A stretch of DNA of 64,000 nucleotides from Octopus vulgaris (taxonomy: Eukaryota). The notes beneath the pieces were generated by a model that had not been told where the DNA came from, made no database searches, and saw nothing but the letters and a program-made list of their open reading frames with translations. Shown piece by piece: positions 1-28,310 of this stretch. The translations under genes were made by a program, and so were the position numbers. Each line of letters starts with the position of its first letter. Positions within the stretch are counted from its first letter, which is position 1. The stretch covers positions 10,540,001-10,604,000 of the forward strand of contig OX597841.1 of NCBI GenBank assembly GCA_951406725.2. Reading direction: 5' to 3'.

Positions 1-134
1 ACACATACATATATACATACACACACATATATACACACACACACATATATATATATACATACACACACACATATATATATACATACACACATATATATAT
101 ATACATATATACATATATACATACATACATACAT

Positions 135-178
<44 letters not shown>

Positions 179-487
179 AACATTTACATAAATAAATAAC
201 GTGAAATACACGAAGGGACGAACAAAAAGGACAAACGGGTCATTCAAAGCCTTCATTCTTCAGTCAGAAACTAATCCCTCATCGCAGATTTCGGCCGTTC
301 AATTCTGAGATCCGCTCCGAATCAGCCAGCCACAGAAGGAAAGAATGCAACGCAACAGAGACGAACATGAAACGAAAAATCTTTTTTGGAGACATGATTG
401 ATTGATTGATCGATTGATTCTAGTTTCAGCTTATGAGCTGTGGCCATGCTGGGGCACCGCCATTTGGTGTTTCTACTTGGTTTTACT

Positions 488-2743
488 TCACGAAAGCTTT
501 TTAGCAACTGCCATTTGGTGCATGAGAGAGTTCGATGCAGCTGCCCTCATCTGCACCTCCTGCCGTGAAGTTGGTTCATCTGGGACACCTGACAGGAAGA
601 GATCCAGTTTCATTTTAAAGACATCTGCATCCACCCCATGCAGGTCTCTCAGGTTCTTCGGGAGGATATTGAAGAGCTGTGGGCCTCGGAAGCCCAGGCT
701 ATCACAGAATCTTGTCCTACATCTTGATGGCGAGTTTGGAGTCCTAGGCACCACGCAGTGGCGCCCAGTTCTGGCATTTGCGTAACTCTCGATGCCAAAG
801 TTTAGGACACGTCCCTCCAGGATCTTCCAGATGTATATTATGGCATATCTTTCCCGCCTACGCTCCAGGGAATACAGTTTTAATCTCTTCAGTCTTTCCC
901 AGTAGCTTACATTCTGCATAGAGGCTATCTTCTTCGTGTAGCTACGTTGGATCGCCTCGAGCTCTGTGATCAACTTGACACTGGATGGTGACCATAACTG
1001 AGAGCAGTAGTCAAAGTGGCTTAGGACAAGTGTCCTCCAGAGGACCATCATGGTTTCTTGTTCTCTTGTTCTAAAGGTTCTGAGGATCCATCCGGCCAGT
1101 CTTCTACATTTCATTGCCAATTTAGCAACATGTACACGAAAGGTCGCGTCATCACTCATGTAAATACCTAGGTCACGCACTGATTGTGCCTCTGGGATTG
1201 CTATTCCTCCGGGTCCGGTGTATTCATTGGGTATTGCATTTAGTTTTGCATGCTGATAGTATAGAGCTTGAAACTTTTCAGCATTGAACTGCATGCTATA
1301 CTTTTCAGCCCACTTGTATATTTTGTCCAGCTCACATTGCAGGTGCTTAGTGTCCTCAGGGTTCTGTATTGCCTGTGAAACTTTTGTATCATCTGCATAA
1401 CTTGTGATCGTGGCTCTTTGCGTGGCTGAGGGCATGTCTGAGAGGGCCATTATGAACAGTAGTGGTCCCAGAACAGTGCCCTGCGGGACACCGCTCACTA
1501 TTTGCGTGTTAATGGAAGTGGCCCCATTGGCTACTACCACCTGACTTCTATCTTTCAGAAAGTCATGGAGCCATTCTCCCAGTTTTCCAACTATGTTGAG
1601 ATCACGCAGTTTGTGACATATCATTCCATGATCGACTTTATCAAAGGCCTTTGCAAAGTCGAGATATATCACTTCCACATTTGAGTGGTTGAGCAGCCGT
1701 TTCAGCACCCAGTCATAGTGTTGTAGGAGCTGAGTTAAACAGCTTCTCCCTGGTCGGAAACGATGTTGGGTGTCGGGCATCAAGTCATTCTCTTCAAAGA
1801 AGGTGATCAGCTTCCTTCTGACTATTCGTTCCATGACCTTGCTGATGTGTGAGGTCAGAGAGATAGGTCTGTAGTTCTTGGCTTTCGCTCTGCTACCTCC
1901 TTTATGAATGGAGCATATTTTACCTTCCTTCAGTTTTCTTGGAAGTTTGCCAGCTGCAAGGAAGCTCTGAAAGAGGAACTGCAGTGGTCTTGCTAGGACT
2001 CTCTTACATGCTTTTAGGAGGATTGCCGGGAATCCATCGGGGCCAGTAGCTGAGTCTGTTTTCATTTCATCTATAGCCTTGATTACATCGTCCTCCTTTA
2101 TATCGATGTAATCTATCGTCGCCGCCTCTGATTTTATATCTGCAGTGGTAAAAAAAGTCAGTTGGATTGGTGATTTGAGATGCCCAAGGGGTGGAGTGAA
2201 AACACTCTTGAATTGCTCATTCAGTATTTCACTTACCCTCATTGGTTTACTTGTAAGTGTGCCATCCTTTTCGAGGAGTGGCCCTGTTCTACAATGCACC
2301 ATAGCTGTTTCTTTGGCATACCTGTAGAAAGCTCTGGGGTTAGATTTTATGTTGTCTATAGCCCAGGCTTCTTTGTCTGCTCTTTCTTTTTCATGAGAGA
2401 GTTGCAGACATTTTTCGATTTCCAACAGTTTTATTTTTAGGCGGGACTTTTCACTGCTTTCAATCTGTTTGCTTAGGCGATTTGAAAATTTTGTACGCCG
2501 TCTCATTAAAATTTTCCTCTCTCTGGGGATTTTGTTCTTGTGTACAGTGGCCTTTCTCTCTGGGACACATTTGTTGCATATGGCTTGCATTATAGACATG
2601 AATTGTTGAAGTTTCACGTCGATGTCTGGCGAGGAGAGACATTTAGGCGAGTTTTGTTTGAGGATCTCTTTCTCAATTTGTTTCCAGTTTGCCTTATGGT
2701 AGTTCAAGCTGGAAAGATTATGAGGGTTTCTTGTAGGCTGCAT
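488..2743 (-). CDS. LINE ORF2 reverse transcriptase portion (751 aa), unit 1
   Basis: Motifs GPDGF, NYRPISLTS, YLDFAKAFDKVDH, SGVPQGTVLGPLLF, YADD and a CR1-type C-terminus YSLERRRERY. Confidence 0.92.
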   Translation of the reverse strand: MQPTRNPHNLSSLNYHKANWKQIEKEILKQNSPKCLSSPDIDVKLQQFMSIMQAICNKCVPERKATVHKNKIPRERKILMRRRTKFSNRLSKQIESSEKSRLKIKLLEIEKCLQLSHEKERADKEAWAIDNIKSNPRAFYRYAKETAMVHCRTGPLLEKDGTLTSKPMRVSEILNEQFKSVFTPPLGHLKSPIQLTFFTTADIKSEAATIDYIDIKEDDVIKAIDEMKTDSATGPDGFPAILLKACKRVLARPLQFLFQSFLAAGKLPRKLKEGKICSIHKGGSRAKAKNYRPISLTSHISKVMERIVRRKLITFFEENDLMPDTQHRFRPGRSCLTQLLQHYDWVLKRLLNHSNVEVIYLDFAKAFDKVDHGMICHKLRDLNIVGKLGEWLHDFLKDRSQVVVANGATSINTQIVSGVPQGTVLGPLLFIMALSDMPSATQRATITSYADDTKVSQAIQNPEDTKHLQCELDKIYKWAEKYSMQFNAEKFQALYYQHAKLNAIPNEYTGPGGIAIPEAQSVRDLGIYMSDDATFRVHVAKLAMKCRRLAGWILRTFRTREQETMMVLWRTLVLSHFDYCSQLWSPSSVKLITELEAIQRSYTKKIASMQNVSYWERLKRLKLYSLERRRERYAIIYIWKILEGRVLNFGIESYANARTGRHCVVPRTPNSPSRCRTRFCDSLGFRGPQLFNILPKNLRDLHGVDADVFKMKLDLFLSGVPDEPTSRQEVQMRAAASNSLMHQMAVAKKLS

Positions 2744-3594
2744 GTCCGTGCTCTCTTTTGGCCCGTACTCTTTTGGTCAGCTCTATCATGTTGTGATCCG
2801 AGAGTAGTGTCGGTGCCACTTTCACATTATGGATGAGATCCATGTCATTTGTGAAGCAGAGATCCAGTGTGTTACCTGCCCTGGTTGGCTGGAGTATTAC
2901 CTGCTCCATGTACAGGGTGTTGATGAGGTTCAGGAGGGACCTCGCCTGTCCTCGTTCACATCTTGTCATTCCTGGGAGAGAAAGGCCCTCGGGCCATCTG
3001 ACACTGGGCAGATTGAAGTCTCCCATAAGAAGTACACTTATGTGTTGTTCTAATGTGGTTAGAACTTCTTCTATTTTTATAAGGCAGTCTCAAACTTGCC
3101 CACATGGCTTGGGGCATCTGGAGGGCGATATGTGGCACACACAACTACATCAAGTTGCCTAATATGTACAATTAGTGTGTCACACACCGAGTTTGAGTAT
3201 GACAAGAGGACCTGGGGTGTGAGGTCCTCACGGATGTACATAGCAACACCTCCATGACTCCTTTCTTTTCTGTCGGTCCGTAGTACAGCATACTGTGGTA
3301 TGTGTAACTCCGCATCTGCTATGTCCGGTTTCAGGTGCGTTTCCGTAAGTGCTATGCATAAGGCTTGATTGCATGCAACAAAGTCTCTCAGGAACGGGAT
3401 TTAGTCCTGTTACTGAGTGTTTGCAGCCCTCTGATGTTCAGTAGGAGCGTCGAGGTGAGGTGTACGTTGTTGCCGGCGGTGTCCATCCTGGGTCTGTTTG
3501 CTGTGGTGGTCTTGTATATAGTGGGTAGTCCCACCTGCGGGCTTGGGTTTGATGAAGCCAGGTCAGCTGCTGTACAATCTTTTGTGCCATGCAC
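2718..3594 (-). pseudogene. LINE APE endonuclease domain, frameshifted in unit 1
   Basis: Same sequence as the 300-aa EN ORF of units 2, 4 and 5, with 1-bp deletions near 3090 and 3402. Confidence 0.85.
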
Positions 3595-4073
3595 AAAAAA
3601 GATTGTTGCTCAGCAGCTGCCCTTTCGACAACATCATGTTGGCGGTTTGTGGCACGCACAACATCTGCGTACCTCCGCTTTGGGGCAGGTGGTGCGTGGT
3701 CCATCCTTTTTCCTTGTGTTGATGGTTTGTCCATCTGCCTCGTGTCTCTGTGGCAGGGTCCCCGATGTGCAAAGCGGCAGCCTGCACCTTGCTTTCCATG
3801 CCAGCAGGAACCTCTCAGGTAGAACCTACACACCCGTGTGCGCTGTTTGTTTCCATCTTTTGCGGTTCCACTTCTATTCCTGGTTGTTTCACCCTTTGGT
3901 CCTGCTTGAGCTTTTCCTTTAGCTCTTCCAGTCCTTCTTTTAGTTCTTCCTCCTCCCTCTACCTCTTCACCGGGTTCTCCGTCTCCATGGCCCTTGCTGC
4001 CGGTTGGAGAACTTGCACCTGGGATCACTACCCGGGCAGGTTTCTCACTCAAAACCTCCTCCCGGGAATCCAC
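3438..4073 (-). CDS. LINE ORF1 with CCCH zinc finger, unit 1 (start codon uncertain)
   Basis: CRFYLRGSCWHGKQGAGCRFAH (C-x7-C-x8-C-x3-H) after a charged low-complexity region; lies 5' of and overlaps the EN ORF. Confidence 0.7.
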   Translation of the reverse strand: MDSREEVLSEKPARVVIPGASSPTGSKGHGDGEPGEEVEGGGRTKRRTGRAKGKAQAGPKGETTRNRSGTAKDGNKQRTRVCRFYLRGSCWHGKQGAGCRFAHRGPCHRDTRQMDKPSTQGKRMDHAPPAPKRRYADVVRATNRQHDVVERAAAEQQSFLCMAQKIVQQLTWLHQTQARRWDYPLYTRPPQQTDPGWTPPATTYTSPRRSY

Positions 4074-4619
4074 CAGGTGGGGGTGACTTCTTTCATCGTC
4101 TCCATTCTTGCCATCTTTGCCCCGCTCGTTCTCAAAGATGGCATCAAGTGCGCCAATGTGCGACCGGTAACGGTTAAAAACATGGATGACACAGGCGCCC
4201 TATGGCTTTAACACAAAAAGAGAGACACAAAAACAATATCAGCAAGCGTGGAAAAATAATTACCTTTTCGGTGATAAGACACATGTTGAACAAGTGGCCG
4301 ATGGAAAGAGAATGGCTGAGGCAGCAAGTCGCAAGAGGGTAAGAGAGAGGAGGGGCTAAGAGAGAGAGGGGACCAAGGAGGGTAGAAGGCGAGGACAGAA
4401 GCAGTGACCGAGAGAGAGAGAGGGAGAGAAGGAATCAGAGAAGAAGCAGTGATCAAGAGAGAGAGGGAGAGAAGGAATCAGAGAGGCTGGGAGAAAAAGG
4501 CGCCAAAACAATTTGGCAACGAAGCAATGGCGAAGGAAAGAAAATAGTTTAAAGACATCGTGCAGGGGTTTTGATATGATAAACATAAAGAAGTTATTAT
4601 GCACGTACGCTGCGAAATA

Positions 4620-5794
4620 TATAATAAACCTTTACATAAATAAATAACGTGAAATACACGAAGGGACGAACAAAAAGACAAACGGGTCATTCAAAGCCTT
4701 CATCCTCAGTCAGAAACTGATCCCTCATCGCAGATTTCGGCTGTTTAATTCTGAGATCCGCTCCGAATCAGCCAGCCACAGAAGGAAAGAATGCAACGCA
4801 ACAGAGACGAACATGAAACACACACACACATATATATACATACACACACACACATATATATACATACACACATACATATATATATATATGTATATAATAA
4901 ACCTTTACATAAATAAATAATAACATATATATATATATATATACATACACACACACATATATATACATACACACATACATATATATATATATGTATATAA
5001 TAAACCTTTAGATAAATAAATAATAACATATATATATATATATACACACACACACATATATATATATGTATATAATAAACCTTTGGATAAATAAATAATA
5101 ACATATATATATATATATACATACACACACACATATATATACATGCACACACAAACATATATACATACACACACACACACATATATACATACACACATAC
5201 ATATATATATATATGTATATAATAACTTTTAGATAATTAAATAATAACACATATATATATATATATACACATACACACACACATATATATACATACACAC
5301 ATATATATATATATGTATATAATAAACCTTTAGATAAATAAATAATAACATATATATATATATATACACACACACACATATATATATATATGTATATAAT
5401 AAGCCTTTAGATAAATAAATAATAACATATATATATATATATACATACACACACACATATATACACATACACACACACATATATATACATGCACACACAC
5501 ACACATATATATACATACACACACACACACATATATACATACAGACACACACAAACACACATATATATACTTACACACACACACACACATATATATACAT
5601 ACACACACAAACACACATATATATACATACACACATATATATATATACATACACACACACATACATATATACATACACACACATATATACATACACACAC
5701 ACACATATATATATACACATACACACACACATATATATATACATACACACATATATATATATACATACATACATACATACATATATACATACAT

Positions 5795-5838
<44 letters not shown>

Positions 5839-6031
5839 AACATTTACATAAATAAATAACGTGAAATACACGAAGGGACGAACAAAAAGACAAACGGGTC
5901 ATTCAAAGCCTTCATTCTTCAGTCAGAAACTGATCCCTCATCGCAGATTTCGGCCGTTCAATTCTGAGATCCGCTCCGAATCAGCCAGCCACAGAAGGAA
6001 AGAATGCAACGCAACAGAGACGAACATGAAA
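4620..6031. repeat. Spacer module: ~200-bp direct repeats (A 4620-4818, B 5833-6031) flanking a (CA)/(TA) block with six ~31-bp ATAATAAACCTTTAGATAAATAAATAATAAC copies
   Basis: Seen directly; the module recurs at 10281-11691, 15842-17219, 21468-22879 and 27127-28558, with a further B copy at 173-372. Confidence 0.93.
4710..4777 (-). ncRNA. Predicted structured RNA (kink-turn plus double pseudoknot), type-A copy; 11 copies in the window
   Basis: Four helices and a canonical k-turn (GGA / GAU-GA-G) read by eye; G-U wobbles work only on the minus strand. Type-B example at 5923-5990. Function unknown. Confidence 0.6.
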
Positions 6032-6146
6032 CGAAAAATCTTTTTTGGAGACATGATTGATTGATTGATCGATTGATTCTAGTTTCAGCTTATGAGCTGT
6101 GGCCATGCTGGGGCACCGCCATTTGGTGTTGCTACTTGGTTTTACT

Positions 6147-8366
6147 TCACGAAAGCTTTTTAGCAACTGCCATTTGGTGCATGAGAGAGTTCGATGCAGC
6201 TGCCCTCATCTGCACCTCCTGCCGTGAAGTTGGTTCATCTGGGACACCTGACAGGAAGAGATCCAGTTTCATTTTAAAGACATCTGCATCCACCCCATGC
6301 AGGTCTCTCAGGTTCTTCGGGAGGATATTGAAGAGCTGTGGGCCTCGGAAGCCCAGGCTATCACAGAATCTTGTCCTACATCTTGATGGCGAGTTTGGAG
6401 TCCTAGGCACCACGCAGTGGCGCCCAGTTCTGGCATTTGCGTAACTCTCGATGCCAAAGTTTAGGACACGTCCCTCCAGGATCTTCCAGATGTATATTAT
6501 GGCATATCTTTCCCGCCTACGCTCCAGGGAATACAGTTTTAATCTCTTCAGTCTTTCCCAGTAGCTTACATTCTGCATAGAGGCTATCTTCTTCGTGTAG
6601 CTACGTTGGATCGCCTCGAGCTCTGTGATCAACTTGACACTGGATGGTGACCATAACTGAGAGCAGTAGTCAAAGTGGCTTAGGACAAGTGTCCTCCAGA
6701 GGACCATCATGGTTTCTTGTTCTCTTGTTCTAAAGGTTCTGAGGATCCATCCGGCCAGTCTTCTACATTTCATTGCCAATTTAGCAACATGTACACGAAA
6801 GGTCGCGTCATCACTCATGTAAATACCTAGGTCACGCACTGATTGTGCCTCTGGGATTGCTATTCCTCCGGGTCCGGTGTATTCATTGGGTATTGCATTT
6901 AGTTTTGCATGCTGATAGTATAGAGCTTGAAACTTTTCAGCATTGAACTGCATGCTATTCTTTTCAGCCCACTTGTATATTTTGTCCAGCTCACATTGCA
7001 GGTGCTTAGTGTCCTCAGGGTTCTGTATTGCCTGTGAAACTTTTGTATCATCTGCATAACTTGTGATCGTGGCTCTTTGCGTGGCTGAGGGCATGTCTGA
7101 GAGGGCCATTATGAACAGTAGTGGTCCCAGAACAGTGCCCTGCGGGACACCGCTCACTATTTGCGTGTTAATGGAAGTGGCCCCATTGGCTACTACCACC
7201 TGACTTCTATCTTTCAGAAAGTCATGGAGCCATTCTCCCAGTTTTCCAACTATGTTGAGATCACGCAGTTTGTGACATATCATTCCATGATCGACTTTAT
7301 CAAAGGCCTTTGCAAAGTCGAGATATATCACTTCCACATTTGAGTGGTTGAGCAGCCGTTTCAGCACCCAGTCATAGTGTTGTAGGAGCTGAGTTAAACA
7401 GCTTCTCCCTGGTCGGAAACCATGTTGGGTGTCGGGCAGCAATTCATTCTCTTCAAAGAAGGTGATCAGCTTCCTTCTGACTATTCGTTCCATGACCTTG
7501 CTAATGTGTGAGGTCAGAGAGATAGGTCTGTAGTTCTTGGCTTTCGCTCTGCTACCTCCTTTATGAATGGAGCATATTTTACCTTCCTTCAGTTTTCTTG
7601 GAAGTTTGCCAGCTGCAAGGAAACTCTGAAAGAGGAACTGCAGTGGCCTTGCTAGGACTCTCTTACATGCTTTTAGGAGGATTGCCGGGAATCCATCGGG
7701 GCCAGTAGCTGAGTCTGTTTTCATTTCATCTATAGCCTTGATTACATCGTCCTCCTTTATATCGATGTAATCTATCGTCGCCGCCTCTGATTTTATATCT
7801 GCAGTGGTAAAAAAAGTCAGTTGGATTGGTGATTTGAGATGCCCAAGGGGTGGAGTGAAAACACTCTTGAATTGCTCATTCAGTATTTCACTTACCCTCA
7901 TTGGTTTACTTGTAAGTGTGCCATCCTTTTCGAGGAGTGGCCCTGTTCTACAGTGCACCATAGCTGTTTCTTTGGCATACCTGTAGAAAGCTCTGGGGTT
8001 AGATTTTATGTTGTCTATAGCCCAGGCTTCTTTGTCTGCTCTTTCTTTTTCATGAGAGAGTTGCAGACATTTTTCGATTTCCAACAGTTTTATTTTTAGG
8101 CGGGACTTTTCACTGCTTTCAATCTGTTTGCTTAGGCGATTTGAAAATTTTGTACGCCGTCTCATTAAAATTTTCCTCTCTCTGGGGATTTTGTTCTTGT
8201 GTACAGTGGCCTTTCTCTCTGGGACACATTTGTAGCATATGGCTTGCATTATAGACATGAATTGTTGAAGTTTCACGTCGATGTCTGGCGAGGAGAGACA
8301 TTTAGGCCAGTTTTGTTTGAGGATCTCTTTCTCAATTTGTTTCCAGTTTGCCTTATGGTAGTTCAA
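6147..8366 (-). CDS. LINE ORF2 reverse transcriptase portion, unit 2
   Basis: 739-aa ORF with all RT motifs; a substitution at ~8390 creates a TGA just upstream in this frame. Confidence 0.88.
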   Translation of the reverse strand: MNYHKANWKQIEKEILKQNWPKCLSSPDIDVKLQQFMSIMQAICYKCVPERKATVHKNKIPRERKILMRRRTKFSNRLSKQIESSEKSRLKIKLLEIEKCLQLSHEKERADKEAWAIDNIKSNPRAFYRYAKETAMVHCRTGPLLEKDGTLTSKPMRVSEILNEQFKSVFTPPLGHLKSPIQLTFFTTADIKSEAATIDYIDIKEDDVIKAIDEMKTDSATGPDGFPAILLKACKRVLARPLQFLFQSFLAAGKLPRKLKEGKICSIHKGGSRAKAKNYRPISLTSHISKVMERIVRRKLITFFEENELLPDTQHGFRPGRSCLTQLLQHYDWVLKRLLNHSNVEVIYLDFAKAFDKVDHGMICHKLRDLNIVGKLGEWLHDFLKDRSQVVVANGATSINTQIVSGVPQGTVLGPLLFIMALSDMPSATQRATITSYADDTKVSQAIQNPEDTKHLQCELDKIYKWAEKNSMQFNAEKFQALYYQHAKLNAIPNEYTGPGGIAIPEAQSVRDLGIYMSDDATFRVHVAKLAMKCRRLAGWILRTFRTREQETMMVLWRTLVLSHFDYCSQLWSPSSVKLITELEAIQRSYTKKIASMQNVSYWERLKRLKLYSLERRRERYAIIYIWKILEGRVLNFGIESYANARTGRHCVVPRTPNSPSRCRTRFCDSLGFRGPQLFNILPKNLRDLHGVDADVFKMKLDLFLSGVPDEPTSRQEVQMRAAASNSLMHQMAVAKKLS

Positions 8367-9255
8367 GCTGGAAAGATTCTGAGGGTTTCATGTAGGCTGC
8401 ATGTCCGTGCTCTCTTTTGGCCCGTACTCTTTTGGTCAGCTCTATCATGTTGTGATCCGAGAGTAGTGTCGGTGTCACTTTCACATTATGGATGAGATCC
8501 ATGTCATTTGTGAAGCAGAGATCCAGTGTGTTACCTGCCCTGGTTGGTTGGAGTATTACCTGCTCCATGTACAGGGTGTTGATGAGGTTCAGGAGGGACC
8601 TCGCCTGTCCTCGTTCACATCTTGTCATTCCTGGGAGAGAAAGGCCCTCGGGCCATCTGACACTGGGCAGATTGAAGTCTCCCATAAGAAGTACACTTAT
8701 GTGTTGTTCTAATGTGGTTAGAACTTCTTCTATTTTTATAAGGCAGTCTTCAAACTTGCCCACATGGCTTGGGGCATCTGGAGGGCGATATGTAGCACAC
8801 ACAACTACATCAAGTTGCCTAATATGTACAATTAGTGTGTCACACACCGAGTTTGAGTATGACAAGAGGACCTGGGGTGTGAGGTCCTCACGGATGTACA
8901 TAGCAACACCTCCATGACTCCTTTCTTTTCTGTCGGTCCGTAGTACAGCATACTGTGGTATGTGTAACTCCGCATCTGCTATGTCCGGTTTCAGGTGCGT
9001 TTCCGTAAGTGCTATGCATAAGGCTTGATTGCATGCAACAAAGTCTCTCAGGAACGGGATTTTTGTCCTGTTACTGAGTGTTTGCAGCCCTCTGATGTTC
9101 AGTAGGAGCATCGAGGTGAGGTGTACGTTGTTGCCGGCGGTGTCCATCCTGGGTCTGTTTGCTGTGGTGGTCTTGTATATAGTGGGTAGTCCCACCTGCG
9201 GGCTTGGGTTTGATGAAGCCAGGTCAGCTGCTGTACAATCTTTTGTGCCATGCAC
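8353..9255 (-). CDS. LINE apurinic-like (APE) endonuclease, unit 2
   Basis: Motifs LNIRGL, ALTETHL, GGVAMYI, YRPP, MGDFN, TLDLCF, SDHNMI. Confidence 0.9.
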   Translation of the reverse strand: MHGTKDCTAADLASSNPSPQVGLPTIYKTTTANRPRMDTAGNNVHLTSMLLLNIRGLQTLSNRTKIPFLRDFVACNQALCIALTETHLKPDIADAELHIPQYAVLRTDRKERSHGGVAMYIREDLTPQVLLSYSNSVCDTLIVHIRQLDVVVCATYRPPDAPSHVGKFEDCLIKIEEVLTTLEQHISVLLMGDFNLPSVRWPEGLSLPGMTRCERGQARSLLNLINTLYMEQVILQPTRAGNTLDLCFTNDMDLIHNVKVTPTLLSDHNMIELTKRVRAKREHGHAAYMKPSESFQLELP

Positions 9256-9734
9256 AAAAAAGATTGTTGCTCAGCAGCTGCCCTTTCGACAACATCATGT
9301 TGGCGGTTTGTGGCACGCACAACATCTGCGTACCTCCGCTTTGGGGCAGGTGGTGCGTGGTCCATCCTTTTTCCTTGTGTTGATGGTTTGTCCATCTGTC
9401 TCGTGTCTCTGTGGCAGGGTCCCCGATGTGCAAAGCGGCAGCCTGCACCTTGCTTTCCATGCCAGCAGGATCCTCTAAGGTAGAACACACACACCCGTGT
9501 GCGCTGTTTGTTTCCATCTTTTGCGGTTCCACTTCTATTCCTGGTTGTTTCACCCTTTGGTCCTGCTTGAGCTTTTCCTTTAGCTCTTCCAGTCCTTCTT
9601 TTAGTTCTTCCTCCTCCCTCTACCTCTTCACCGGGTTCTCCGTCTCCATGGCCCTTGCTGCCGGTTGGAGAACTTGCACCTGGGATCACTACCCGGGCAG
9701 GTTTCTCACTCAAAACCTCCTCCCGGGAATCCAC
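9099..9734 (-). CDS. LINE ORF1 (CCCH), unit 2
   Basis: As unit 1. Confidence 0.7.
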   Translation of the reverse strand: MDSREEVLSEKPARVVIPGASSPTGSKGHGDGEPGEEVEGGGRTKRRTGRAKGKAQAGPKGETTRNRSGTAKDGNKQRTRVCVFYLRGSCWHGKQGAGCRFAHRGPCHRDTRQMDKPSTQGKRMDHAPPAPKRRYADVVRATNRQHDVVERAAAEQQSFLCMAQKIVQQLTWLHQTQARRWDYPLYTRPPQQTDPGWTPPATTYTSPRCSY

Positions 9735-10688
9735 CAGGTGGGGGTGACTTCTTTCATCGTCTCCATTCTTGCCATCTTTGCCCCGCTCGTTCTCAAAGAT
9801 GGCATCAAGTGCGCCAATGTGCGACCGGTAACGGTTAAAAACATGGATGACACAGGCGCCCTATGGCTTTAACACAAAAAGAGAGACACAAAAACAATAT
9901 CAGCAAGCGTGGAAAAATAATTACCATTTCGGTGATAAGACACATGTTGAACAAGTGGCCGATGGAAAGAGAATGGCTGAGGCAGCAAGTCGCAAGAGGG
10001 TAAGAGAGAGGAGGGGCTAAGAGAGAGAGAGGACCAAGGAGGGTAGAAGGCGAGGACAGAAGCAGTGACCGAGAGAGAGAGGGGGAGAGAAGGAATCAGA
10101 GAAGAAGCAGTGATCAAGAGAGAGAGGGAGAGAAGGAATCAGAGAGGCTGGGAGAAAAAGGCGCCAAAACAATTTGGCAACGAAGCAATGGCGAAGGAAA
10201 GAAAATAGTTTAAAGACATCGTGCAGGGGTTTTGATATGATAAACATAAAGAAGTTATTATGCACGTACGCTGCGAAATATATAATAAACCTTTACATAA
10301 ATAACTAACGTGAAATACACGAAGGGACGAACAAAAAGACAAACGGGTCATTCAAAGCCTTCATCCTCAGTCAGAAACTGATCCCTCATCGCAGATTTCG
10401 GCTGTTTAATTCTGAGATCCGCTCCGAATCAGCCAGCCACAGAAGGAAAGAATGCAACGCAACAGAGACGAACATGAAACACACACACACATATATATAC
10501 ATACACACACACACATATATATACATACACACATACATATATATATATATGTATATAATAAACCTTTACATAAATAAATAATAACATATATATATATATA
10601 TATACATACACACACACATATATATACATACACACATACATATATATATATATGTATATAATAAACCTTTAGATAAATAAATAATAAC

Positions 10689-10719
<31 letters not shown>

Positions 10720-11713
10720 TATATATATATATGTATATAATAAACCTTTGGATAAATAAATAATTAATATATATATATATACATACACACACACATATAT
10801 ATACATGCACACACAAACATATATACATACACACACACACACATTTATACATACACACATACATATATATATATATGTATATAATAACTTTTAGATAATT
10901 AAATAATAACACATATATATATATATATACACATACACACACACATATATATACATACACACATATATATATATATGTATATAATAAACCTTTAGATAAA
11001 TAAATAATATACATATATATATATACACACACACACATATATATATATATGTATATAATAAGCCTTTAGATAAATAAATAATAACATATATATATATATA
11101 TACATACACACACGCATATATACACATACACACACATATATATATACATGCACACACACACATATATATACATACACACACACACACATATATACATAGA
11201 CACACACGCAAACACACATGTATATACTTACACACACACACACACACATATATATACATACACACACAAACACACATATATATACATACACACATATATA
11301 TATATACATACACACACACATACATATATACATACACACACATATATACATACACACACACACATATATATATATACATACACACACACATATATATATA
11401 TACATACACACATATATATATATACATACATACATACATACATATATACATACATACACATATATATATATATATATAATATATATATATATATAATAAA
11501 CATTTACATAAATAAATAACGTGAAATACACGAAGGGACGAACAAAAAGACAAACGGGTCATTCAAAGCCTTCATTCTTCAGTCAGAAACTGATCCCTCA
11601 TCGCAGATTTCGGCCGTTCAATTCTGAGATCCGCTCCGAATCAGCCAGCCACAGAAGGAAAGAATGCAACGCAACAGAGACGAACATGAAACGAAAAATC
11701 TTTTTTGGAGACA

Positions 11714-14700
11714 TGATTGATTGATTGATCGATTGATTCTAGTTTCAGCTTATGAGCTGTGGCCATGCTGGGGCACCGCCATTTGGTGTTGCTACTTGGT
11801 TTTACTTCACGAAAGCTTTTTAGCAACTGCCATTTGGTGCATGAGAGAGTTCGATGCAGCTGCCCTCATCTGCACCTCCTGCCGTGAAGTTGGTTCATCT
11901 GGGACACCTGACAGGAAGAGATCCAGTTTCATTTTAAAGACATCTGCATCCACCCCATGCAGGTCTCTCAGGTTCTTCGGGAGGATATTGAAGAGCTGTG
12001 GGCCTCGGAAGCCCAGGCTATCACAGAATCTTGTCCTACATCTTGATGGCGAGTTTGGAGTCCTAGGCACCACGCAGTGGCGCCCAGTTCTGGCATTTGC
12101 GTAACTCTCGATGCCAAAGTTTAGGACACGTCCCTCCAGGATCTTCCAGATGTATATTATGGCATATCTTTCCCGCCTACGCTCCAGGGAATACAGTTTT
12201 AATCTCTTCAGTCTTTCCCAGTAGCTTACATTCTGCATAGAGGCTATCTTCTTCGTGTAGCTACGTTGGATCGCCTCGAGCTCTGTGATCAACTTGACAC
12301 TGGATGGTGACCATAACTGAGAGCAGTAGTCAAAGTGGCTTAGGACAAGTGTCCTCCAGAGGACCATCATGGTTTCTTGTTCTCTTGTTTAAAGGTTCTG
12401 AGGATCCATCCGGCCAGTCTTCTACATTTCATTGCCAATTTAGCAACATGTACACGAAAGGTCGCGTCATCACTCATGTAAATACCTAGGTCACGCACTG
12501 ATTGTGCCTCTGGGATTGCTATTCCTCCGGGTCCGGTGTATTCATTGGGTATTGCATTTAGTTTTGCATGCTGATAGTATAGAGCTTGAAACTTTTCAGC
12601 ATTGAACTGCATGCTATTCTTTTCAGCCCACTTGTATATTTTGTCCAGCTCACATTGCAGGTGCTTAGTGTCCTCAGGGTTCTGTATTGCCTGTGAAACT
12701 TTTGTATCATCTGCATAACTTGTGATCGTGGCTCTTTGCGTGGCTGAGGGCATGTCTGAGAGGGCCATTATGAACAGTAGTGGTCCCAGAACAGTGCCCT
12801 GCGGGACACCGCTCACTATTTGCGTGTTAATGGAAGTGGCCCCATTGGCTACTACCACCTGACTTCTATCTTTCAGAAAGTCATGGAGCCATTCTCCCAG
12901 TTTTCCAACTATGTTGAGATCACGCAGCTTGTGACATATCATTCCATGATCGACTTTATCAAAGGCCTTTGCAAAGTCGAGATATATCACTTCCACATTT
13001 GAGTGGTTGAGCAGCCGTTTCAGCACCCAGTCATAGTGTTGTAGGAGCTGAGTTAAACAGCTTCTCCCTGGTCGGAAACCATGTTGGGTGTCTGTAGTTC
13101 TTGGCTTCCGCTCTGCTACCTCCTTTATGAATGGGGCATATTTTACCTTCCTTCAGTTTTCTTGGAAGTTTGCCAGCTGCAAGGAAGCTCTGAAAGAGGA
13201 ACTGCAGTGGTCTTGCTAGGACTCTCTTACATGCTTTTAGGAGGATTGCCGGGAATCCATCGGGGCCAGTAGCTGAGTCTGTTTTCATTTCATCTATAGC
13301 CTTGATTACAACGTCTTCCTTTATATCGATGTAATCTATCGTCGCCGCCTCTGATTTTATATCTGCAGTGGTAAAAAAAGTCAGTTGGATTGGTGATTTG
13401 GAGATGCCCAAGGGGTGGAGTGAAAACACTCTTGAATTGCTCATTCAGTATTTCACTTACCCTCATTGGTTTTCCTGTAAGTGTGCCATCCTTTTCGAGG
13501 AGTGGCCCTATTCTACAGTGCACCGTAGCTGTTTCTTTGGCATACCTGTAGAAAGCTCTGGGGTTAGATTTTATGTTGTCTATAGCCCAGGCTTCTTTGT
13601 CTGCTCTTTCCTTTTCATGTGAGAGTTGCAGACATTTTTCGATTTCCAACAGTTTTATTTTTAGGCGGGACTTTTCACTGCTTTCAATCTGTTTGCTTAG
13701 GCGATTTGAAAATTTTGTACGCCGTCTCATTAAAATTTTCCTCTCTCTGGGGATTTTGTTCTTGTGTACAGTGGCCTTTCTCTCTGGGACACATTTGTAG
13801 CATATGGCTTGCATTACAGACATGAATTGTTGAAGTTTCACGTCGATGTCTGGCGAGGAGAGACATTTAGGCCAGTTTTGTTTGAGGATCTCTTTCTCAA
13901 TTTGTTTCCAGTTTGCCTTATGGTAGTTCAAGCTGGAAAGATTCTGAGGGTTTCTTGTAGGCTGCATGTCCGTGCTCTCTTTTGGCCCGTACTCTTTTGG
14001 TCAGCTCTATCATGTGTGATCCGAGAGTAGTGTCGGTGTCACTTTCACATTATAGATGAGATCCATGTCATTTGTGAAGCAGAGATCCAGTGTGTTACCT
14101 GCCCTGGTTGATTGGAGTATTACCTGCTCCATGTACAGGGTGTTGATGAGGTTCAGGAGGGACAACGCCTGTCCTCGTTCACATCTTGTCATTCCTGGGA
14201 GAGGAAGGCCCTCGGGCCATCTGACACTGGGCAGATTGAAGTCTCCCATAAGAAGTACACTTATGTGTTGTTCTAATGTGGTTAGAACTTCTATTTTTAT
14301 AAGGCAGTCTTCAAACTTGCCCACATGGCTTGGGGCATCTGGAGGGCGATATGTAGCACACACAACTACATCAAGTTGCCTAATATGTACAATTAGTGTG
14401 TCACACACCGAGTTTGAGTATGACAAGAGGACCTGGGGTGTGAGGTCCTCACGGATGTACATAGCAACACCTCCATGACTCCTTTCTTTTCTGTCGGTCC
14501 GTAGTACAGCATACTGTGGTATGTGTAACTCCGCATCTGCTATGTCCGGTTTCAGGTGCATTTCCGTAAGTGCTATGCATAAGGCTTGATTGCATGCAAC
14601 AAAGTCTGTCAGGAACGGGATTTTTGTCCTGTTACTGATTGTTTGCAGCCCTCTGATGTTCAGTAGAAGCATCGAGGTGAGGTGTACGTTGTTGCCGGCG

Positions 14701-15841
14701 GTGTCCATCCTGGGTCTGTTTGCTGTGGTGGTCTTGTATATAGTGGGTAGTCCCACCTGCGGGCTTGGGTTTGATGAAGCCAGGTCAGCTGCTGTACAAT
14801 CTTTTGTGCCATGCACAAAAAAGATTGTTGCTCAGCAGCTGCCCTTTCGACAACATCATGTTGGCGGTTTGTGGCACGCACAACATCTGCGTACCTCCGC
14901 TTTGGGGCAGGTGGTGCGTGGTCCATCCTTTTTCCTTGTGTTGATGGTTTGTCCATCTGCCTCGTGTCTCTGTGGCAGGGTCCCCGATGTGCAAAGCGGC
15001 AGCCTGCACCTTGCTTTCCATGCCAGCAGGAACCTCTCAGGTAGAACCTACACACCCGTGTGCGCTGTTTGTTTCCATCTTTTGCGGTTCCACTTCTATT
15101 CCTGGTTGTTTCACCCTTTGGTCCTGCTTGAGCTTTTCCTTTAGCTCTTCCAGTCCTTCTTTTAGTTCTTCCTCCTCCCTCTACCTCTTCACCGGGTTCT
15201 CCGTCTCCATGGCCCTTGCTGCCGGTTGGAGAACTTGCACCTGGGATCACTTTCCGGGCAGGTTTCTCACTCAAAACCTCCTCCCGGGAATCCACCAGGT
15301 GGGGGTGACTTCTTTCATCGTCTCCATTCTTGCCATCTTTGCCCCGCTCGTTCTCAAAGATGGCATCAAGTGCGCCAATGTGCGACCGGTAACGGTTAAA
15401 AACATGGATGACACAGGCGCCCTATGGCTTTAATACAAAAAGAGAGACACAAAAACAATATCAGCAAGCGTGGAAAAATAATTACCTTTTCGGTGATAAG
15501 ACACATGTTGAACAAGTGGCCGATGGAAAGAGAATGGCTGAGGCAGCAAGTCGCAAGAGGGTAAGAGAGAGGAGGGGCTAAGAGAGAGAGGGGACCAAGG
15601 AGGGTAGAAGGCGAGGACAGAAGCAGTGACCGAGAGAGAGAGAGGGAGAGAAGGAATCAGAGAAGAAGCAGTGATCAAGAGAGAGAGGGAGAGAAGGAAT
15701 CAGAGAGGCTGGGAGATAAAGGCGCCAAAACAATTTGGCAACGAAGCAATGGCGAAGGAAAGAAAATAGTTTAAAGACATCGTGCAGGGGTTTTGATATG
15801 ATAAACATAAAGAAGTTATTATGCACGTACGCTGCGAAATA
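11714..15841 (-). mobile_element. CR1-group LINE, unit 3 (ORF2 disrupted)
   Basis: ~95-bp deletion at ~13090 with GTC microhomology plus several small indels; ORF1 14660-15295 open, EN 14010-14816. Confidence 0.9.
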
Positions 15842-16249
15842 TATAATAAACCTTTACATAAATAAATAACGTGAAATACACGAAGGGACGAACAAAAAGA
15901 CAAACGGGTCATTCAAAGCCTTCATCCTCAGTCAGAAACTGATCCCTCATCGCAGATTTCGGCTGTTTAATTCTGAGATCCGCTCCGAATCAGCCAGCCA
16001 CAGAAGGAAAGAATGCAACGCAACAGAGACGAACATGAAACACACACACACATATATATACATACACACACACACATATATATACATACACACATACATA
16101 TATATATATATGTATATAATAAACCTTTACATAAATAAATAATAACATATATATATATATATATACATACACACACACATATATATACATACACACATAC
16201 ATATATATATATATGTATATAATAAACCTTTAGATAAATAAATAATAAC

Positions 16250-16280
<31 letters not shown>

Positions 16281-16984
16281 TATATATATATATGTATATA
16301 ATAAACCTTTGGATAAATAAATAATAACATATATATATATATATACATACACACACACATATATATACATGCACACACAAACATATATACATACACACAC
16401 ACACACATATATACATACACACATACATATATATATATATGTATATAATAACTTTTAGATAATTAAATAATAACACATATATATATATATATACACATAC
16501 ACACACACATATATATACATACACACATATATATATATATGTATATAATAAACCTTTAGATAAATAAATAATAACATATATATATATATATACACACACA
16601 CACATATATATATATATGTATATAATAAGCCTTTAGATAAATAAATAATAACATATATATATATATATACATACACACACGCATATATACACATACACAC
16701 ACACATATATATACATGCACACACACACATATATATACATACACACACATATATACATACACACACACACAAACACACATATATATACTTACACACACAC
16801 ACACATATATATACATACACACACAAACACACATATATATACATACACACATATATATATATATACATACACACACACATACATATATACATACACACAC
16901 ATATATACATACACACACACATATATATATTCATACACACATATATATATATACATACATACATACATACATATATACATACAT

Positions 16985-17026
<42 letters not shown>

Positions 17027-17334
17027 AACATTTACATAAATAAATAACGTGAAATACACGAAGGGACGAACAAAAAGACAAACGGGTCATTCAAAGCCTT
17101 CATTCTTCAGTCAGAAACTGATCCCTCATCGCAGATTTCGGCCGTTCAATTCTGAGATCCGCTCCGAATCAGCCAGCCACAGAAGGAAAGAATGCAACGC
17201 AACAGAGACGAACATGAAACGAAAAATCTTTTTTGGAGACATGATTGATTGATTGATCGATTGATTCTAGTTTCAGCTTATGAGCTGTGGCCATGCTGGG
17301 GCACCGCCATTTGGTGTTGCTACTTGGTTTTACT

Positions 17335-19590
17335 TCACGAAAGCTTTTTAGCAACTGCCATTTGGTGCATGAGAGAGTTCGATGCAGCTGCCCTCATCTG
17401 CACCTCCTGCCGTGAAGTTGGTTCATCTGGGACACCTGACAGGAAGAGATCCAGTTTCATTTTAAAGACATCTGCATCCACCCCATGCAGGTCTCTCAGG
17501 TTCTTCGGGAGGATATTGAAGAGCTGTGGGCCTCGGAAGCCCAGGCTATCACAGAATCTTGTCCTACATCTTGATGGCGAGTTTGGAGTCCTAGGCACCA
17601 CGCAGTGGCGCCCAGTTCTGGCATTTGCGTAACTCTCGATGCCAAAGTTTAGGACACGTCCCTCCAGGATCTTCCAGATGTATATTATGGCATATCTTTC
17701 CCGCCTACGCTCCAGGGAATACAGTTTTAATCTCTTCAGTCTTTCCCAGTAGCTTACATTCTGCATAGAGGCTATCTTCTTCGTGTAGCTACGTTGGATC
17801 GCCTCGAGCTCTGTGATCAACTTGACACTGGATGGTGACCATAACTGAGAGCAGTAGTCAAAGTGGCTTAGGACAAGTGTCCTCCAGAGGACCATCATGG
17901 TTTCTTGTTCTCTTGTTCTAAAGGTTCTGAGGATCCATCCGGCCAGTCTTCTACATTTCATTGCCAATTTAGCAACATGTACACGAAAGGTCGCGTCATC
18001 ACTCATGTAAATACCTAGGTCACGCACTGATTGTGCCTCTGGGATTGCTATTCCTCCGGGTCCGGTGTATTCATTGGGTATTGCATTTAGTTTTGCATGC
18101 TGATAGTATAGAGCTTGAAACTTTTCAGCATTGAACTGCATGCTATTCTTTTCAGCCCACTTGTATATTTTGTCCAGCTCACATTGCAGGTGCTTAGTGT
18201 CCTCAGGGTTCTGTATTGCCTGTGAAACTTTTGTATCATCTGCATAACTTGTGATCGTGGCTCTCTGCGTGGCTGAGGGCATGTCTGAGAGGGCCATTAT
18301 GAACAGTAGTGGTCCCAGAACAGTGCCCTGCGGGACACCGCTCACTGTTTGCGTGTTAATGGAAGTGGCCCCTTTGGCTACTACCACCTGACTTCTAACT
18401 TTCAGAAAGTCATGGAGCCATTCTCCCAGTTTTCCAACTATGTTGAGATCACGCAATTTGTGACATATCATTCCATGATCGACTTTATCAAAGGCCTTTG
18501 CAAAGTCGAGATATATCACTTCCACATTTGAGTGGTTGAGCAGCCGTTTCAGCACCCAGTCATAGTGTTGTAGGAGCTGAGTTAAACAGCTTCTCCCTGG
18601 TCGGAAACCATGTTGGGTGTCGGGCAGCAAGTCATTCTCTTCAAGGAAGGTGATCAGCTTCCTTCTGACTATTCGTTCCATGAACTTGCTGATGTGTGAG
18701 GTCAGAGAGATAGGTCTGTAGTTCTTGGCTTCCGCTCTGCTACCTCCTTTATGAATGGGGCATATTTTACCTTCCTTCAGTTTTCTTGGAAGTTTGCCAG
18801 CTGCAAGGAAGCTCTGAAAGAGGAACTGCAGTGGTCTTGCTAGGACTCTCTTACATGCTTTTAGGAGGATTGCCGGGAATCCATCGGGGCCAGTAGCTGA
18901 GTCTGTTTTCATTTCATCTATAGCCTTGATTACATCGTCTTCCTTTATATCGATGTAATCTATCGTCGCCGCCTCTGATTTTATATCTGCAGTGGTAAAA
19001 AAGTCAGTTGGATTGGTGATTTGGAGATGCCCAAGGGGTGGAGTGAAAACACTCTTGAATTGCTCATTCAGTATTTCACTTACCCTCATTGGTTTTCCTG
19101 TAAGTGTGCCATCCTTTTCGAGGAGTGGCCCTATTCTACAGTGCACCATAGCTGTTTCTTTGGCATACCTGTAGAAAGCTCTGGGGTTAGATTTTATGTT
19201 GTCTATAGCCCAGGCTTCTTTGTCTGCTCTTTCTTTTTCATGAGAGAGTTGCAGACATTTTTCGATTTCCAACAGTTTTATTTTTAGGCGGGACTTTTCA
19301 CTGCTTTCAATCTGTTTGCTTAGGCGATTTGAAAATTTTGTACGCCGTCTCATTAAAATTTTCCTCTCTCTGGGGATTTTGTTCTTGTGTACAGTGGCCT
19401 TTCTCTCTGGGACACATTTGTAGCATATGGCTTGCATTACAGACATGAATTGTTGAAGTTTCACGTCGATGTCTGGCGAGGAGAGACATTTAGGCCAGTT
19501 TTGTTTGAGGATCTCTTTCTCAATTTGTTTCCAGTTTGCCTTATGGTAGTTCAAGCTGGAAAGATTCTGAGGGTTTCTTGTAGGCTGCAT
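17335..19590 (-). CDS. LINE ORF2 reverse transcriptase portion (751 aa), unit 4
   Basis: All RT motifs intact (QHGFRPGRSC, YLDFAKAFD, GVPQG, YADD). Confidence 0.92.
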   Translation of the reverse strand: MQPTRNPQNLSSLNYHKANWKQIEKEILKQNWPKCLSSPDIDVKLQQFMSVMQAICYKCVPERKATVHKNKIPRERKILMRRRTKFSNRLSKQIESSEKSRLKIKLLEIEKCLQLSHEKERADKEAWAIDNIKSNPRAFYRYAKETAMVHCRIGPLLEKDGTLTGKPMRVSEILNEQFKSVFTPPLGHLQITNPTDFFTTADIKSEAATIDYIDIKEDDVIKAIDEMKTDSATGPDGFPAILLKACKRVLARPLQFLFQSFLAAGKLPRKLKEGKICPIHKGGSRAEAKNYRPISLTSHISKFMERIVRRKLITFLEENDLLPDTQHGFRPGRSCLTQLLQHYDWVLKRLLNHSNVEVIYLDFAKAFDKVDHGMICHKLRDLNIVGKLGEWLHDFLKVRSQVVVAKGATSINTQTVSGVPQGTVLGPLLFIMALSDMPSATQRATITSYADDTKVSQAIQNPEDTKHLQCELDKIYKWAEKNSMQFNAEKFQALYYQHAKLNAIPNEYTGPGGIAIPEAQSVRDLGIYMSDDATFRVHVAKLAMKCRRLAGWILRTFRTREQETMMVLWRTLVLSHFDYCSQLWSPSSVKLITELEAIQRSYTKKIASMQNVSYWERLKRLKLYSLERRRERYAIIYIWKILEGRVLNFGIESYANARTGRHCVVPRTPNSPSRCRTRFCDSLGFRGPQLFNILPKNLRDLHGVDADVFKMKLDLFLSGVPDEPTSRQEVQMRAAASNSLMHQMAVAKKLS

Positions 19591-20443
19591 GTCCGTGCTC
19601 TCTTTTGGCCCGTACTCTTTTGGTCAGCTCTATCATGTTGTGATCCGAGAGTAGTGTCGGTGTCACTTTCACATTATGGATGAGATCCATGTCATTTGTG
19701 AAGCAGAGATCCAGTGTGTTACCTGCCCTGGTTGGTTGGAGTATTACCTGCTCCATGTACAGGGTGTTGATGAGGTTCAGGAGGGACCTCGCCTGTCCTC
19801 GTTCACATCTTGTCATTCCTGGGAGAGAAAGGCCCTCGGGCCATCTGACACTGGGCAGATTGAAGTCTCCCATAAGAAGTACACTTATGTGTTGTTCTAA
19901 TGTGGTTAGAACTTCTTCTATTTTTATAAGGCAGTCTTCAAACTTGCCCACATGGCTTGGGGCATCTGGAGGGCGATATGTAGCACACACAACTACATCA
20001 AGTTGCCTAATATGTACAATTAGTGTGTCACACACCGAGTTTGAGTATGACAAGAGGACCTGGGGTGTGAGGTCCTCACGGATGTACATAGCAACACCTC
20101 CATGACTCCTTTCTTTTCTGTCGGTCCGTAGTACAGCATACTGTGGTATGTGTAACTCCGCATCTGCTATGTCCGGTTTCAGGTGCGTTTCCGTAAGTGC
20201 TATGCATAAGGCTTGATTGCATGCAACAAAGTCTCTCAGGAACGGGATTTTTGTCCTGTTACTGAGTGTTTGCAGCCCTCTGATGTTCAGTAGGAGCATC
20301 GAGGTGAGGTGTACGTTGTTGCCGGCGGTGTCCATCCTGGGTCTGTTTGCTGTGGTGGTCTTGTATATAGTGGGTAGTCCCACCTGCGGGCTTGGGTTTG
20401 ATGAAGCCAGGTCAGCTGCTGTACAATCTTTTGTGCCATGCAC
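19541..20443 (-). CDS. LINE APE endonuclease, unit 4
   Basis: Same EEP motifs as unit 2. Confidence 0.9.
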   Translation of the reverse strand: MHGTKDCTAADLASSNPSPQVGLPTIYKTTTANRPRMDTAGNNVHLTSMLLLNIRGLQTLSNRTKIPFLRDFVACNQALCIALTETHLKPDIADAELHIPQYAVLRTDRKERSHGGVAMYIREDLTPQVLLSYSNSVCDTLIVHIRQLDVVVCATYRPPDAPSHVGKFEDCLIKIEEVLTTLEQHISVLLMGDFNLPSVRWPEGLSLPGMTRCERGQARSLLNLINTLYMEQVILQPTRAGNTLDLCFTNDMDLIHNVKVTPTLLSDHNMIELTKRVRAKREHGHAAYKKPSESFQLELP

Positions 20444-20922
20444 AAAAAAGATTGTTGCTCAGCAGCTGCCCTTTCGACAACATCATGTTGGCGGTTTGTG
20501 GCACGCACAACATCTGCGTACCTCCGCTTTGGGGCAGGTGGTGCGTGGTCCATCCTTTTTCCTTGTGTTGATGGTTTGTCCATCTGCCTCGTGTCTCTGT
20601 GGCAGGGTCCCCGATGTGCAAAGCGGCAGCCTGCACCTTGCTTTCCATGCCAGCAGGATCCTCTCAGGTAGAACCTACACACCCGTGTGCGCTGTTTGTT
20701 TCCATCTTTTGCGGTTCCACTTCTATTCCTGGTTGTTTCACCCTTTGGTCCTGCTTGAGCTTTTCCTTTAGCTCTTCCAGTCCTTCTTTTAGTTCTTCCT
20801 CCTCCCTCTACCTCTTCACCGGGTTCTCCGTCTCCATGGCCCTTGCTGCCGGTTGGAGAACTTGCACCTGGGATCACTACCCGGGCAGGTTTCTCACTCA
20901 AAACCTCCTCCCGGGAATCCAC
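20287..20922 (-). CDS. LINE ORF1 (CCCH), unit 4
   Basis: As unit 1. Confidence 0.7.
   Translation of the reverse strand: MDSREEVLSEKPARVVIPGASSPTGSKGHGDGEPGEEVEGGGRTKRRTGRAKGKAQAGPKGETTRNRSGTAKDGNKQRTRVCRFYLRGSCWHGKQGAGCRFAHRGPCHRDTRQMDKPSTQGKRMDHAPPAPKRRYADVVRATNRQHDVVERAAAEQQSFLCMAQKIVQQLTWLHQTQARRWDYPLYTRPPQQTDPGWTPPATTYTSPRCSY

Positions 20923-21875: not shown

Positions 21876-21906
<31 letters not shown>

Positions 21907-22644: not shown

Positions 22645-22686
<42 letters not shown>

Positions 22687-28279: not shown

Positions 28280-28310
<31 letters not shown>

Follow-up and report, generated by a model that had tools for sequence, protein, structure and literature searches.

A putative hammerhead ribozyme with a detached core and a kink-turn in a Penelope-type repeat of Octopus vulgaris

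Three types of non-circular hammerhead ribozyme, SGC, CSG and GCS, are known (Eckert 2023, PMC10085705). Eckert 2023 assumed that the core block cannot be interrupted; known hammerheads have 1-2 inserted bases at most between the core and stem II, and the ends of stem III and of the connector helix lie far apart in the crystal structure. Type CSG is known from two metagenomic sequences (PMC10085705), and type SGC appeared in Eckert 2023 only in our literature search, which covered sources other than subscription journals. Among Penelope-like elements (PLEs), Naiads have (TA)n targets, 5' truncation, partial tandems and 30-40-bp tails (Craig 2021, PMC8557442); they were reported to be without canonical hammerheads, with eight families labelled 'HHR_half_core', whose core halves are 35-50 nt apart. 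Retrozymes of the type without long terminal repeats (LTRs) were proposed to be non-autonomous PLE derivatives (PMC4209133; bioRxiv 10.64898/2026.07.22.740005). Here we describe a 75-nt motif in a 64,000-nt stretch of the Octopus vulgaris genome (assembly GCA_951406725.2, contig OX597841.1, positions 10,540,001 to 10,604,000; hereafter the window). Judged by its core and by covariation, the motif is a hammerhead that belongs to none of the six described permutations. Its CUGANGA core is detached from stem II, a kink-turn (k-turn) joins stem III to a connector helix, and the RNA of the repeat that carries it is likely to cleave itself after C4755.

Parts and strand order of the motif

A k-turn consists of a canonical pair, a 3-nt bulge, tandem G.A/A.G pairs and a second helix. 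An earlier reading, made from the sequence only, had placed a 68-nt motif at 4777-4710 on the minus strand, with four helices (a to d) and a k-turn between d and b. The quoted letters were verified, the pairings can be read directly from the sequence (a 5/5, d 8/8, b 6/6, c 6/6), the GA/AG pattern of the k-turn is legible, and the minus-strand polarity is supported. The limits given were one base short, and the motif extends to 4703; the 7 nt left out are the catalytic core. The parts are as follows, where rows are those of the 78-row alignment described below.

4703..4777, minus: whole split-core hammerhead, type A copy, 75 nt
4773..4777, minus: stem II 5' strand (10.1-10.5; helix a), the 5' end of the motif, detached from the core; covaries with 4743-4739
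4765..4772, minus: connector helix, 5' strand (helix d), equivalent to helix 'I' of type SGC (Eckert 2023); supported by covariation
4762..4764, minus: non-bulged strand of the k-turn (3n, G2n, A1n); GA in 63/78 rows, free of the search pattern
4756..4761, minus: stem III 3' strand (helix b), with U16.1 at 4756; U in 75/78 rows
4754..4755, minus: predicted cleavage site, after C17 (4755) of the AUC triplet, from hammerhead analogy, a non-G H17 in 76/78 rows and the pile-up of 5' junctions
4749..4754, minus: stem I 5' strand (helix c); 93.7% of cells paired
4744..4748, minus: linker between stems I and II, 5 nt long here and 2 nt in the Naiad-type family
4735..4743, minus: stem II 3' strand (4743-4739), then G12-A13-A14-A15.1 (GAAA, 4738-4735)
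4730..4735, minus: stem III 5' strand; 91.9% of cells paired
4724..4729, minus: 3-nt bulge of the k-turn and G1b-A2b-3b; spacing constant across families; in most rows the GA was dictated by the search pattern
4716..4723, minus: connector helix, 3' strand (d'), from covariation
4710..4715, minus: stem I 3' strand (c'), from pairing in the alignment
4703..4709, minus: catalytic core C3-U4-G5-A6-N7-G8-A9, 3' end of the conserved motif

All three junction strands of a hammerhead are present: CUGANGA (4709-4703) directly after helix c, GAAA (4738-4735) directly after helix a, and, after helix b, an AUC that leads into c. Thus, helices a, b and c correspond to stems II, III and I, and the claim that the motif fits no known ribozyme gives way to a rearranged hammerhead with its core at 4709-4703 and its GAAA at 4738-4735. 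The suggestion of a self-cleaving retroelement ribozyme is supported as far as it concerns a hammerhead, with cleavage itself a prediction, and fails as a new ribozyme class. The strand order of cut site, GAAA and core is the type-SGC order of Eckert 2023, and the connector helix joins stems I and II as helix I does in that type. By contrast, the core does not continue into the 5' strand of stem II, as it does in all six permutations, where block C is intact. The SGC, CSG and GCS types are openings of one strand circle, and the form in the window is a fourth opening of it, between A9 and 10.1.

Conservation of the catalytic positions was read together with what the search patterns imposed. CUGANGA was intact in 28/30 loci of a second motif family (family 2) that were picked without the core in the search pattern, and exact in 76/78 rows, where C3-G8 was part of the pattern for most rows. 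Position N7 is free (A35/U21/G13/C9), and A9 is present in 78/78 rows. The GAAA between stems II and III is found in the window and is pattern-imposed elsewhere, where it is flanked by two covarying helices. The NUH triplet (U16.1 and H17) lay outside every genome search pattern, with the qualification that the profile used to anchor the alignment favoured UC at the cut triplet. The closing pair of the k-turn is kept in 76/78 rows, and its position 3b.3n varies among rows.

Nested folding of the motif was unremarkable compared with shuffles (z -0.95), so the evidence beyond chance is covariation. A scan of Rfam gave no match at the gathering score, and the 31 Rfam rows at E<=10 on one dispersed copy contained no ribozyme family. 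By-eye fits to consensus features of the HDV, twister, pistol and hairpin ribozymes gave no match, and attempts to fit a type II or cross-copy hammerhead broke down at stem I before helix c was assigned to it.

The window contains 11 copies (5 of type A, 6 of type B). The two differences between the types reported inside the 68 nt are present, and two further ones lie just 3' of it.

4703..4777, minus: type A ribozyme copy; further ones at 10438, 15999, 21625 and 27284
331-257 and 5916..5990, minus: type B ribozyme copies; further starts at 11650, 17178, 22838 and 28517

Covariation and the strand that forms stem II

Searches of the genome returned 223 matches to family 2 (control, 0), 708 to a spacing pattern (control, 23), 2959 to a looser spacing pattern (control, 205) and 518 to an Ovul-type (Naiad-type) motif (control, 3). 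For the alignment we took the first 91 of 100 listed spacing-pattern matches, representing 90 loci. From 148 parsed motifs, 78 rows were aligned and the rest were left out as 5'-truncated, duplicate or chance matches. The rows comprise 62 that passed an upstream homology score of >=28 (null 99th percentile, 27), two copies from the window, two of the dispersed copies of family 1, and a further 12 that were added by hand as apparently full-length. In the 77 distinct rows, 83.4% of cells are paired, with 19/24 pairs altered on both sides, and the pairing score was 0.441 compared with 0.207 after shuffling (0/500 shuffles as high; slid controls, 21-45%).

To control for kinship, 15 clusters were defined on the 3' half only and the halves were swapped among clusters. 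Each helix paired better unswapped than swapped: 4.42 compared with 3.58 for stem II formed with the 5' strand, 5.62 with 4.63 for the connector helix, 4.48 with 3.75 for stem III and 5.42 with 4.53 for stem I (P=5e-5 for each). All four helices, a to d, covary across the 15 subfamilies. Some features of the data set count against this result: the 12 hand-added rows are diverged or flank-truncated, the MAFFT alignment misplaces 5 rows, and the rows are related, decayed copies, for which the cluster swap limits the effect of kinship without removing it.

Fixed-geometry scans outside animals, with one spacing per scan, gave nothing that folds among the matches listed, where the best pairing was 13/22 in 119 metagenome loci, 16 in 120 prokaryote loci, and 14, 15 and 16 in 27, 62 and 120 viral loci, respectively. 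Controls on the octopus genome itself gave pairings of 16-22 in 57 loci and 16-21 in 11 loci.

The 5' strand and its stem II partner change in step in at least 7 versions, which include GGCUG/CAGCC, GGGCA/UGCCC, GGCCU/AGGCC, GCACC/GGUGC and GACAC/GUGUC. An alternative to this pairing is that the motif is an ordinary type-SGC hammerhead, in which stem II would be formed by an RGCY word (R, purine; Y, pyrimidine) 4-5 nt past the core and the 5' strand would be a competitor or switch. Several observations favour this alternative over a split core. Pairing between the downstream RGCY word and the 3' strand of stem II is seen in 65.5% of cells and beat 500/500 simple shuffles; in the window's own family it amounts to 4/5 pairs. 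In addition, a break between A9 and 10.1 is without precedent in the literature consulted, where our search outside subscription journals found no text on a break between A9 and G10.1, and it contradicts the assumption of Eckert 2023 cited above. By contrast, the RGCY word (4-7 nt after the core) gained no covariation support under the cluster swap (P=0.24), nor did the strand directly after A9 (P=0.48), which pairs with the stem II 3' strand in 18% of cells. The RGCY strand is near-palindromic, which inflates its pairing, and its distance from the core is at odds with the 1-2 inserted bases seen at most in known hammerheads (PMC10085705). Moreover, the Naiad-type family does without an RGCY word; its 3' flank cannot form stem II, whereas most of its full copies have a 5' strand that pairs 5/5. 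The ordinary SGC reading is therefore improbable. Since the 5' strand covaries with its partner and the downstream words fail the swap, stem II begins the motif and the core ends it. We regard the fold and topology of the split-core motif as well supported by these sequence comparisons, and the k-turn is a plausible bridge over the distance between stem III and the connector helix.

Downstream of the core, window 4702-4670 and its relatives in many families keep a near-palindromic RGCY word, GAAU and a short hairpin, which together look like a relic of the 3' half of an ancestral type I hammerhead. Two other loci (L105 and L106) carry ordinary type I hammerheads whose core and stem I 3' strand match those of the split form; these possibly represent the ancestral state.

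Predicted cleavage and the host repeat

By sequence, the motif is present in thousands of copies of a Penelope-type repeat, and the 5' ends of these copies bear on cleavage. The choice of copies relied solely on an 18-nt word close to the 3' end (578 matches), and 5' junctions were mapped for 95 matches at 90 loci, with +1 as the first base after the predicted cut 4755|4754. Seventeen junctions fell at +1..+13 (0.022 per nt at risk) compared with one at -12..0 (0.0015), and other bins had densities of 0-0.010 per nt at risk. The probability of this pile-up was P=2e-4 relative to -12..0 and P=4e-7 relative to the rest of -56..+84. In family 2 (33 matches), 15 junctions lay at +1..+10 compared with 0 at -12..0; here the search pattern hides positions beyond about +13, and one locus is an inverted pair that was counted twice, which weakens this count. 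In both families, the pile-up begins abruptly, on its 5' side, at the predicted bond. A junction edge of this kind would be produced by a template that starts at the cut, and we take the pile-up as indirect evidence of cutting.

The same mapping also supplied evidence against cutting. The predicted cut is crossed by 52/95 copies, and a second, weaker cluster of 10 junctions at +33..+45 suggests a contribution of reverse transcriptase (RT) stalling on structure. In addition, cleavage by the hammerhead of an anole PLE needed the protein and was dispensable for insertion in vitro (PMC11167929). The crossing copies and the second cluster favour a real fold that cuts poorly or not at all and instead binds or stalls RT or a protein of the 15.5K/L7Ae family, with the pile-up reflecting RT stalling or (TA)n microhomology. 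The +33..+45 cluster is located where RT enters the helices, and the +1..+13 window is 69% AT. Against this reading stands the abrupt 5' limit of the pile-up at the predicted bond in both families, and two equally AT-rich windows, -75..-63 and -105..-93, belong to a stretch that has a single end in 54 nt. Furthermore, the conservation of C3-A9 with a free N7, of U16.1 and of a non-G H17 matches the needs of catalysis. We consider a fold that cuts poorly or not at all unlikely, and self-cleavage of the motif after C4755 probable. The crossing copies and the ends at +33..+45 imply that some templates are uncut or re-ligated and that RT also stalls.

The sequence-only reading had treated the motif as a terminal element of a long interspersed nuclear element (LINE). 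A copy of type B does lie ~65 nt past the LINE tail, as claimed, and the motif flanks every LINE copy in the window. Together with the lack of an Rfam match, this would fit a terminal element specific to the LINE, or else a new class of ribozyme. The hammerhead core and the genomic distribution argue otherwise. A 17-nt word of the motif has 368 exact matches across the genome (control, 0); 100 places were listed, covering contigs C1-C15, and 20 loci were fetched. In all 20, the motif forms the 3' portion of a short repeat whose 3' end is constant and whose 5' end varies, mostly in (TA)n, and the LINE of the window is joined to the motif in one of them (L099). An uninterrupted partial tandem with a period of 652 bp occurs without the LINE (L097), and two related LINE copies elsewhere (L037; 92-95% identity) both end without the motif. 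Thus, the motif sits in a separate 652-bp repeat, the body of which had been taken for the LINE 5' untranslated region, and a LINE-specific element or new class is highly improbable.

The repeat has the anatomy of a non-autonomous Penelope-like element (retrozyme): its copies have the same 3' end, sit at (TA)n sites, are truncated at the 5' end, form partial tandems with lengths of 652-860 bp and have an optional ~45-nt tail. It is non-coding, with a longest ATG-started open reading frame (ORF) of 64-140 aa in 6 units. In the window it is organized as follows.

4167..4818, minus: Penelope-like repeat, upstream part of a partial tandem, with a 5'-truncated copy carrying ribozyme A and then the unit body to the LINE insertion point; matches the L097 tandem
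395..4166, minus: LINE inside the repeat, with ORF1 (weak Torus/CCCH match), endonuclease, RT and a TCAA-type tail, from Pfam and junctions
9827-6054, minus: a further example of the LINE, which occurs in every 5.66-kb unit
175..394, minus: remainder of the interrupted repeat, holding ribozyme B (331-257) plus the repeat 3' end at (TA)n
1..28892, minus: tandem array with a 5.66-kb unit (repeat, LINE and TA/TG microsatellite), extending past the start of the window by ~2.7 kb

The 3' end of the array is the normal 3' end of the repeat, set in an ORF-like exon of a multicopy gene family. In the two paralogues read, ORF-like sequence crosses the insertion point and the motif is absent, and an intronic C/D small nucleolar RNA of the neighbouring gene was rejected on this ground. 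On contig C28, at least 7 arrays have one or both ends in common, and the array therefore probably spread by DNA-level duplication. A shorter LINE-repeat-LINE composite on contig C15 is without the flanks of the C28 arrays.

Other features were seen around the array. The TA/TG spacer (4854-5835 and each repeat) contains several stubs of the repeat 3' end with a 77-nt period, which suggest that priming recurred, or that slippage took place, at the target. One member of a large family of genes or repeats on C28 (647 candidates; L039:6305-8005; L056-L080), with long ORFs that have no Pfam match, is broken up by the array. Nested LTR-retrotransposon pieces on both strands (28893-42000), with protease, RNase H, integrase, CCHC and DUF7047 matches, adjoin the 5' end of the array. 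The window also contains a C2H2 zinc-finger ORF of ~24 fingers (58022-60170), a 27-bp satellite in 75 copies (31348-33371) and a 52-bp tandem repeat (60711-61310).

Relation to Naiads and other known systems

The Naiad link rests on a shared fold in published consensus ends: in 53 consensus records of Naiads (PMC8557442 supplement; names assigned by record order), the 330-400 nt at the 3' end were read by eye, and the window unit was compared by fold only. The split-core fold was recognized in 8/53 Naiad 3' ends. It includes the k-turn in Naiad_Obim and Naiad_Ovul, and has another internal loop or an insert in the Esco, Amil, Aacu, Anas, 2_Movir and Bfor Naiads, where stem II of Esco has 4/5 pairs and stem I of Bfor only 2 bp. 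Complete type-CSG hammerheads were found in 6 nematode Naiads (1_Nbra, 2_Nbra, 3_Nbra, Hcon, Hpol and Asuum), and neither form could be parsed in the part shown of the other 39/53 records. In about 10 bivalve, hemichordate and Clytia Naiad ends, the place of a hammerhead is taken by a conserved motif of another kind, which is rich in helices and closely follows the ORF; this motif may be another ribozyme. In the octopus genome, 15/20 Ovul-type loci parse, most with near-full stems, to the same fold as the window motif, and 3' fragments matching the Naiad_Ovul/Obim ends occur.

From the shared fold, a Naiad is the most likely mobilizing partner of the repeat, although no window-family copy joined in sense to a PLE-type ORF was found among the 75/162 candidate ORFs scanned. 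A Neptune-type PLE that lies beside one copy was rejected as direct parent, with the motif in sense at 0/30 loci and 2 antisense nearby. A high-copy Neptune-type PLE has many intact 781-aa ORFs, and its 3' end (L245, L250, L258 and L260) carries, by eye, a motif resembling a type I hammerhead in which U3 and A8 replace C3 and G8.

We propose the following mechanism. The chain runs from the stem II 5' strand through the connector helix and k-turn to stem III, the cut site and stem I, and then, after the 5-nt linker, through stem II, GAAA and stem III, the k-turn and the connector helix back to stem I and CUGANGA. The k-turn would fold the chain back where stem III ends, and the short linker and connector helix would clamp the far ends of stems I and II, replacing the usual loop-loop contact. 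The ribozyme would cut tandem precursors into unit RNAs, which a Penelope-type RT, most likely that of a Naiad, would copy into (TA)n sites. The LINE is a passenger that inserted in the repeat, and the LINE-plus-repeat unit was later multiplied in tandem; any cutting of read-through LINE transcripts would be a side effect of this insertion. The k-turn could also make cutting dependent on a host L7Ae-family protein. With less confidence than in the hammerhead itself, we favour a broader reading in which this topology outside the six-permutation scheme, with its core assembled by two pseudoknots and a k-turn, cuts in vivo and, with the nematode CSG form, represents the missing Naiad ribozyme from ctenophores and corals to cephalopods.

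If correct, these proposals have several implications. A split core would break the stated assumption of an uninterruptible core block and would offer a direct answer to the apparent lack of hammerheads in Naiads. It would move a non-circular RNA permutation from metatranscriptome fragments to thousands of copies in animal genomes. The 5'-junction edge would be rare genomic evidence that a PLE ribozyme cuts the copied template. Finally, a ribozyme with its core at the end of the molecule and a putative protein-binding k-turn could be a scaffold for switches.

Among known systems, Naiads share with the window repeat the (TA)n targets, 5' truncation, partial tandems and tails, and the Obim and Ovul ends share the split-core k-turn fold; Naiads were reported to be without canonical hammerheads (PMC8557442), and the window unit is non-coding. 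The retrozymes without LTRs and the pseudo-LTR (pLTR) type I hammerheads of PLEs (PMC4209133; bioRxiv 10.64898/2026.07.22.740005) also have non-coding tandem units with one hammerhead each. Their hammerheads are canonical or minimal type I and often active as dimers, whereas the window motif has a full 5-6-bp stem III, a non-circular order and a k-turn. No report that combines a hammerhead, a k-turn and a retrotransposon was found in the literature outside subscription journals.

Type CSG (PMC10085705) has the same strand circle and connector helix as the window motif, and differs in being opened between stem III and the connector helix, with an intact core block and no k-turn. Type SGC (HRIMA-1 and variants; PMC10085705) has the same order of cut-site block, GAAA block and core, two pseudoknots, a short linker between stems I and II, and an extra helix that joins their far ends. 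The words 'kink' and 'k-turn' have 0 occurrences in the text of Eckert 2023 available to us. In type SGC the core continues into stem II, and Eckert 2023 found the RNA in no genome of a known organism, whereas the window form has the stem II 5' strand at its 5' end, uses a k-turn to link both strands of stem III to the connector helix, and is present in thousands of animal genomic copies.
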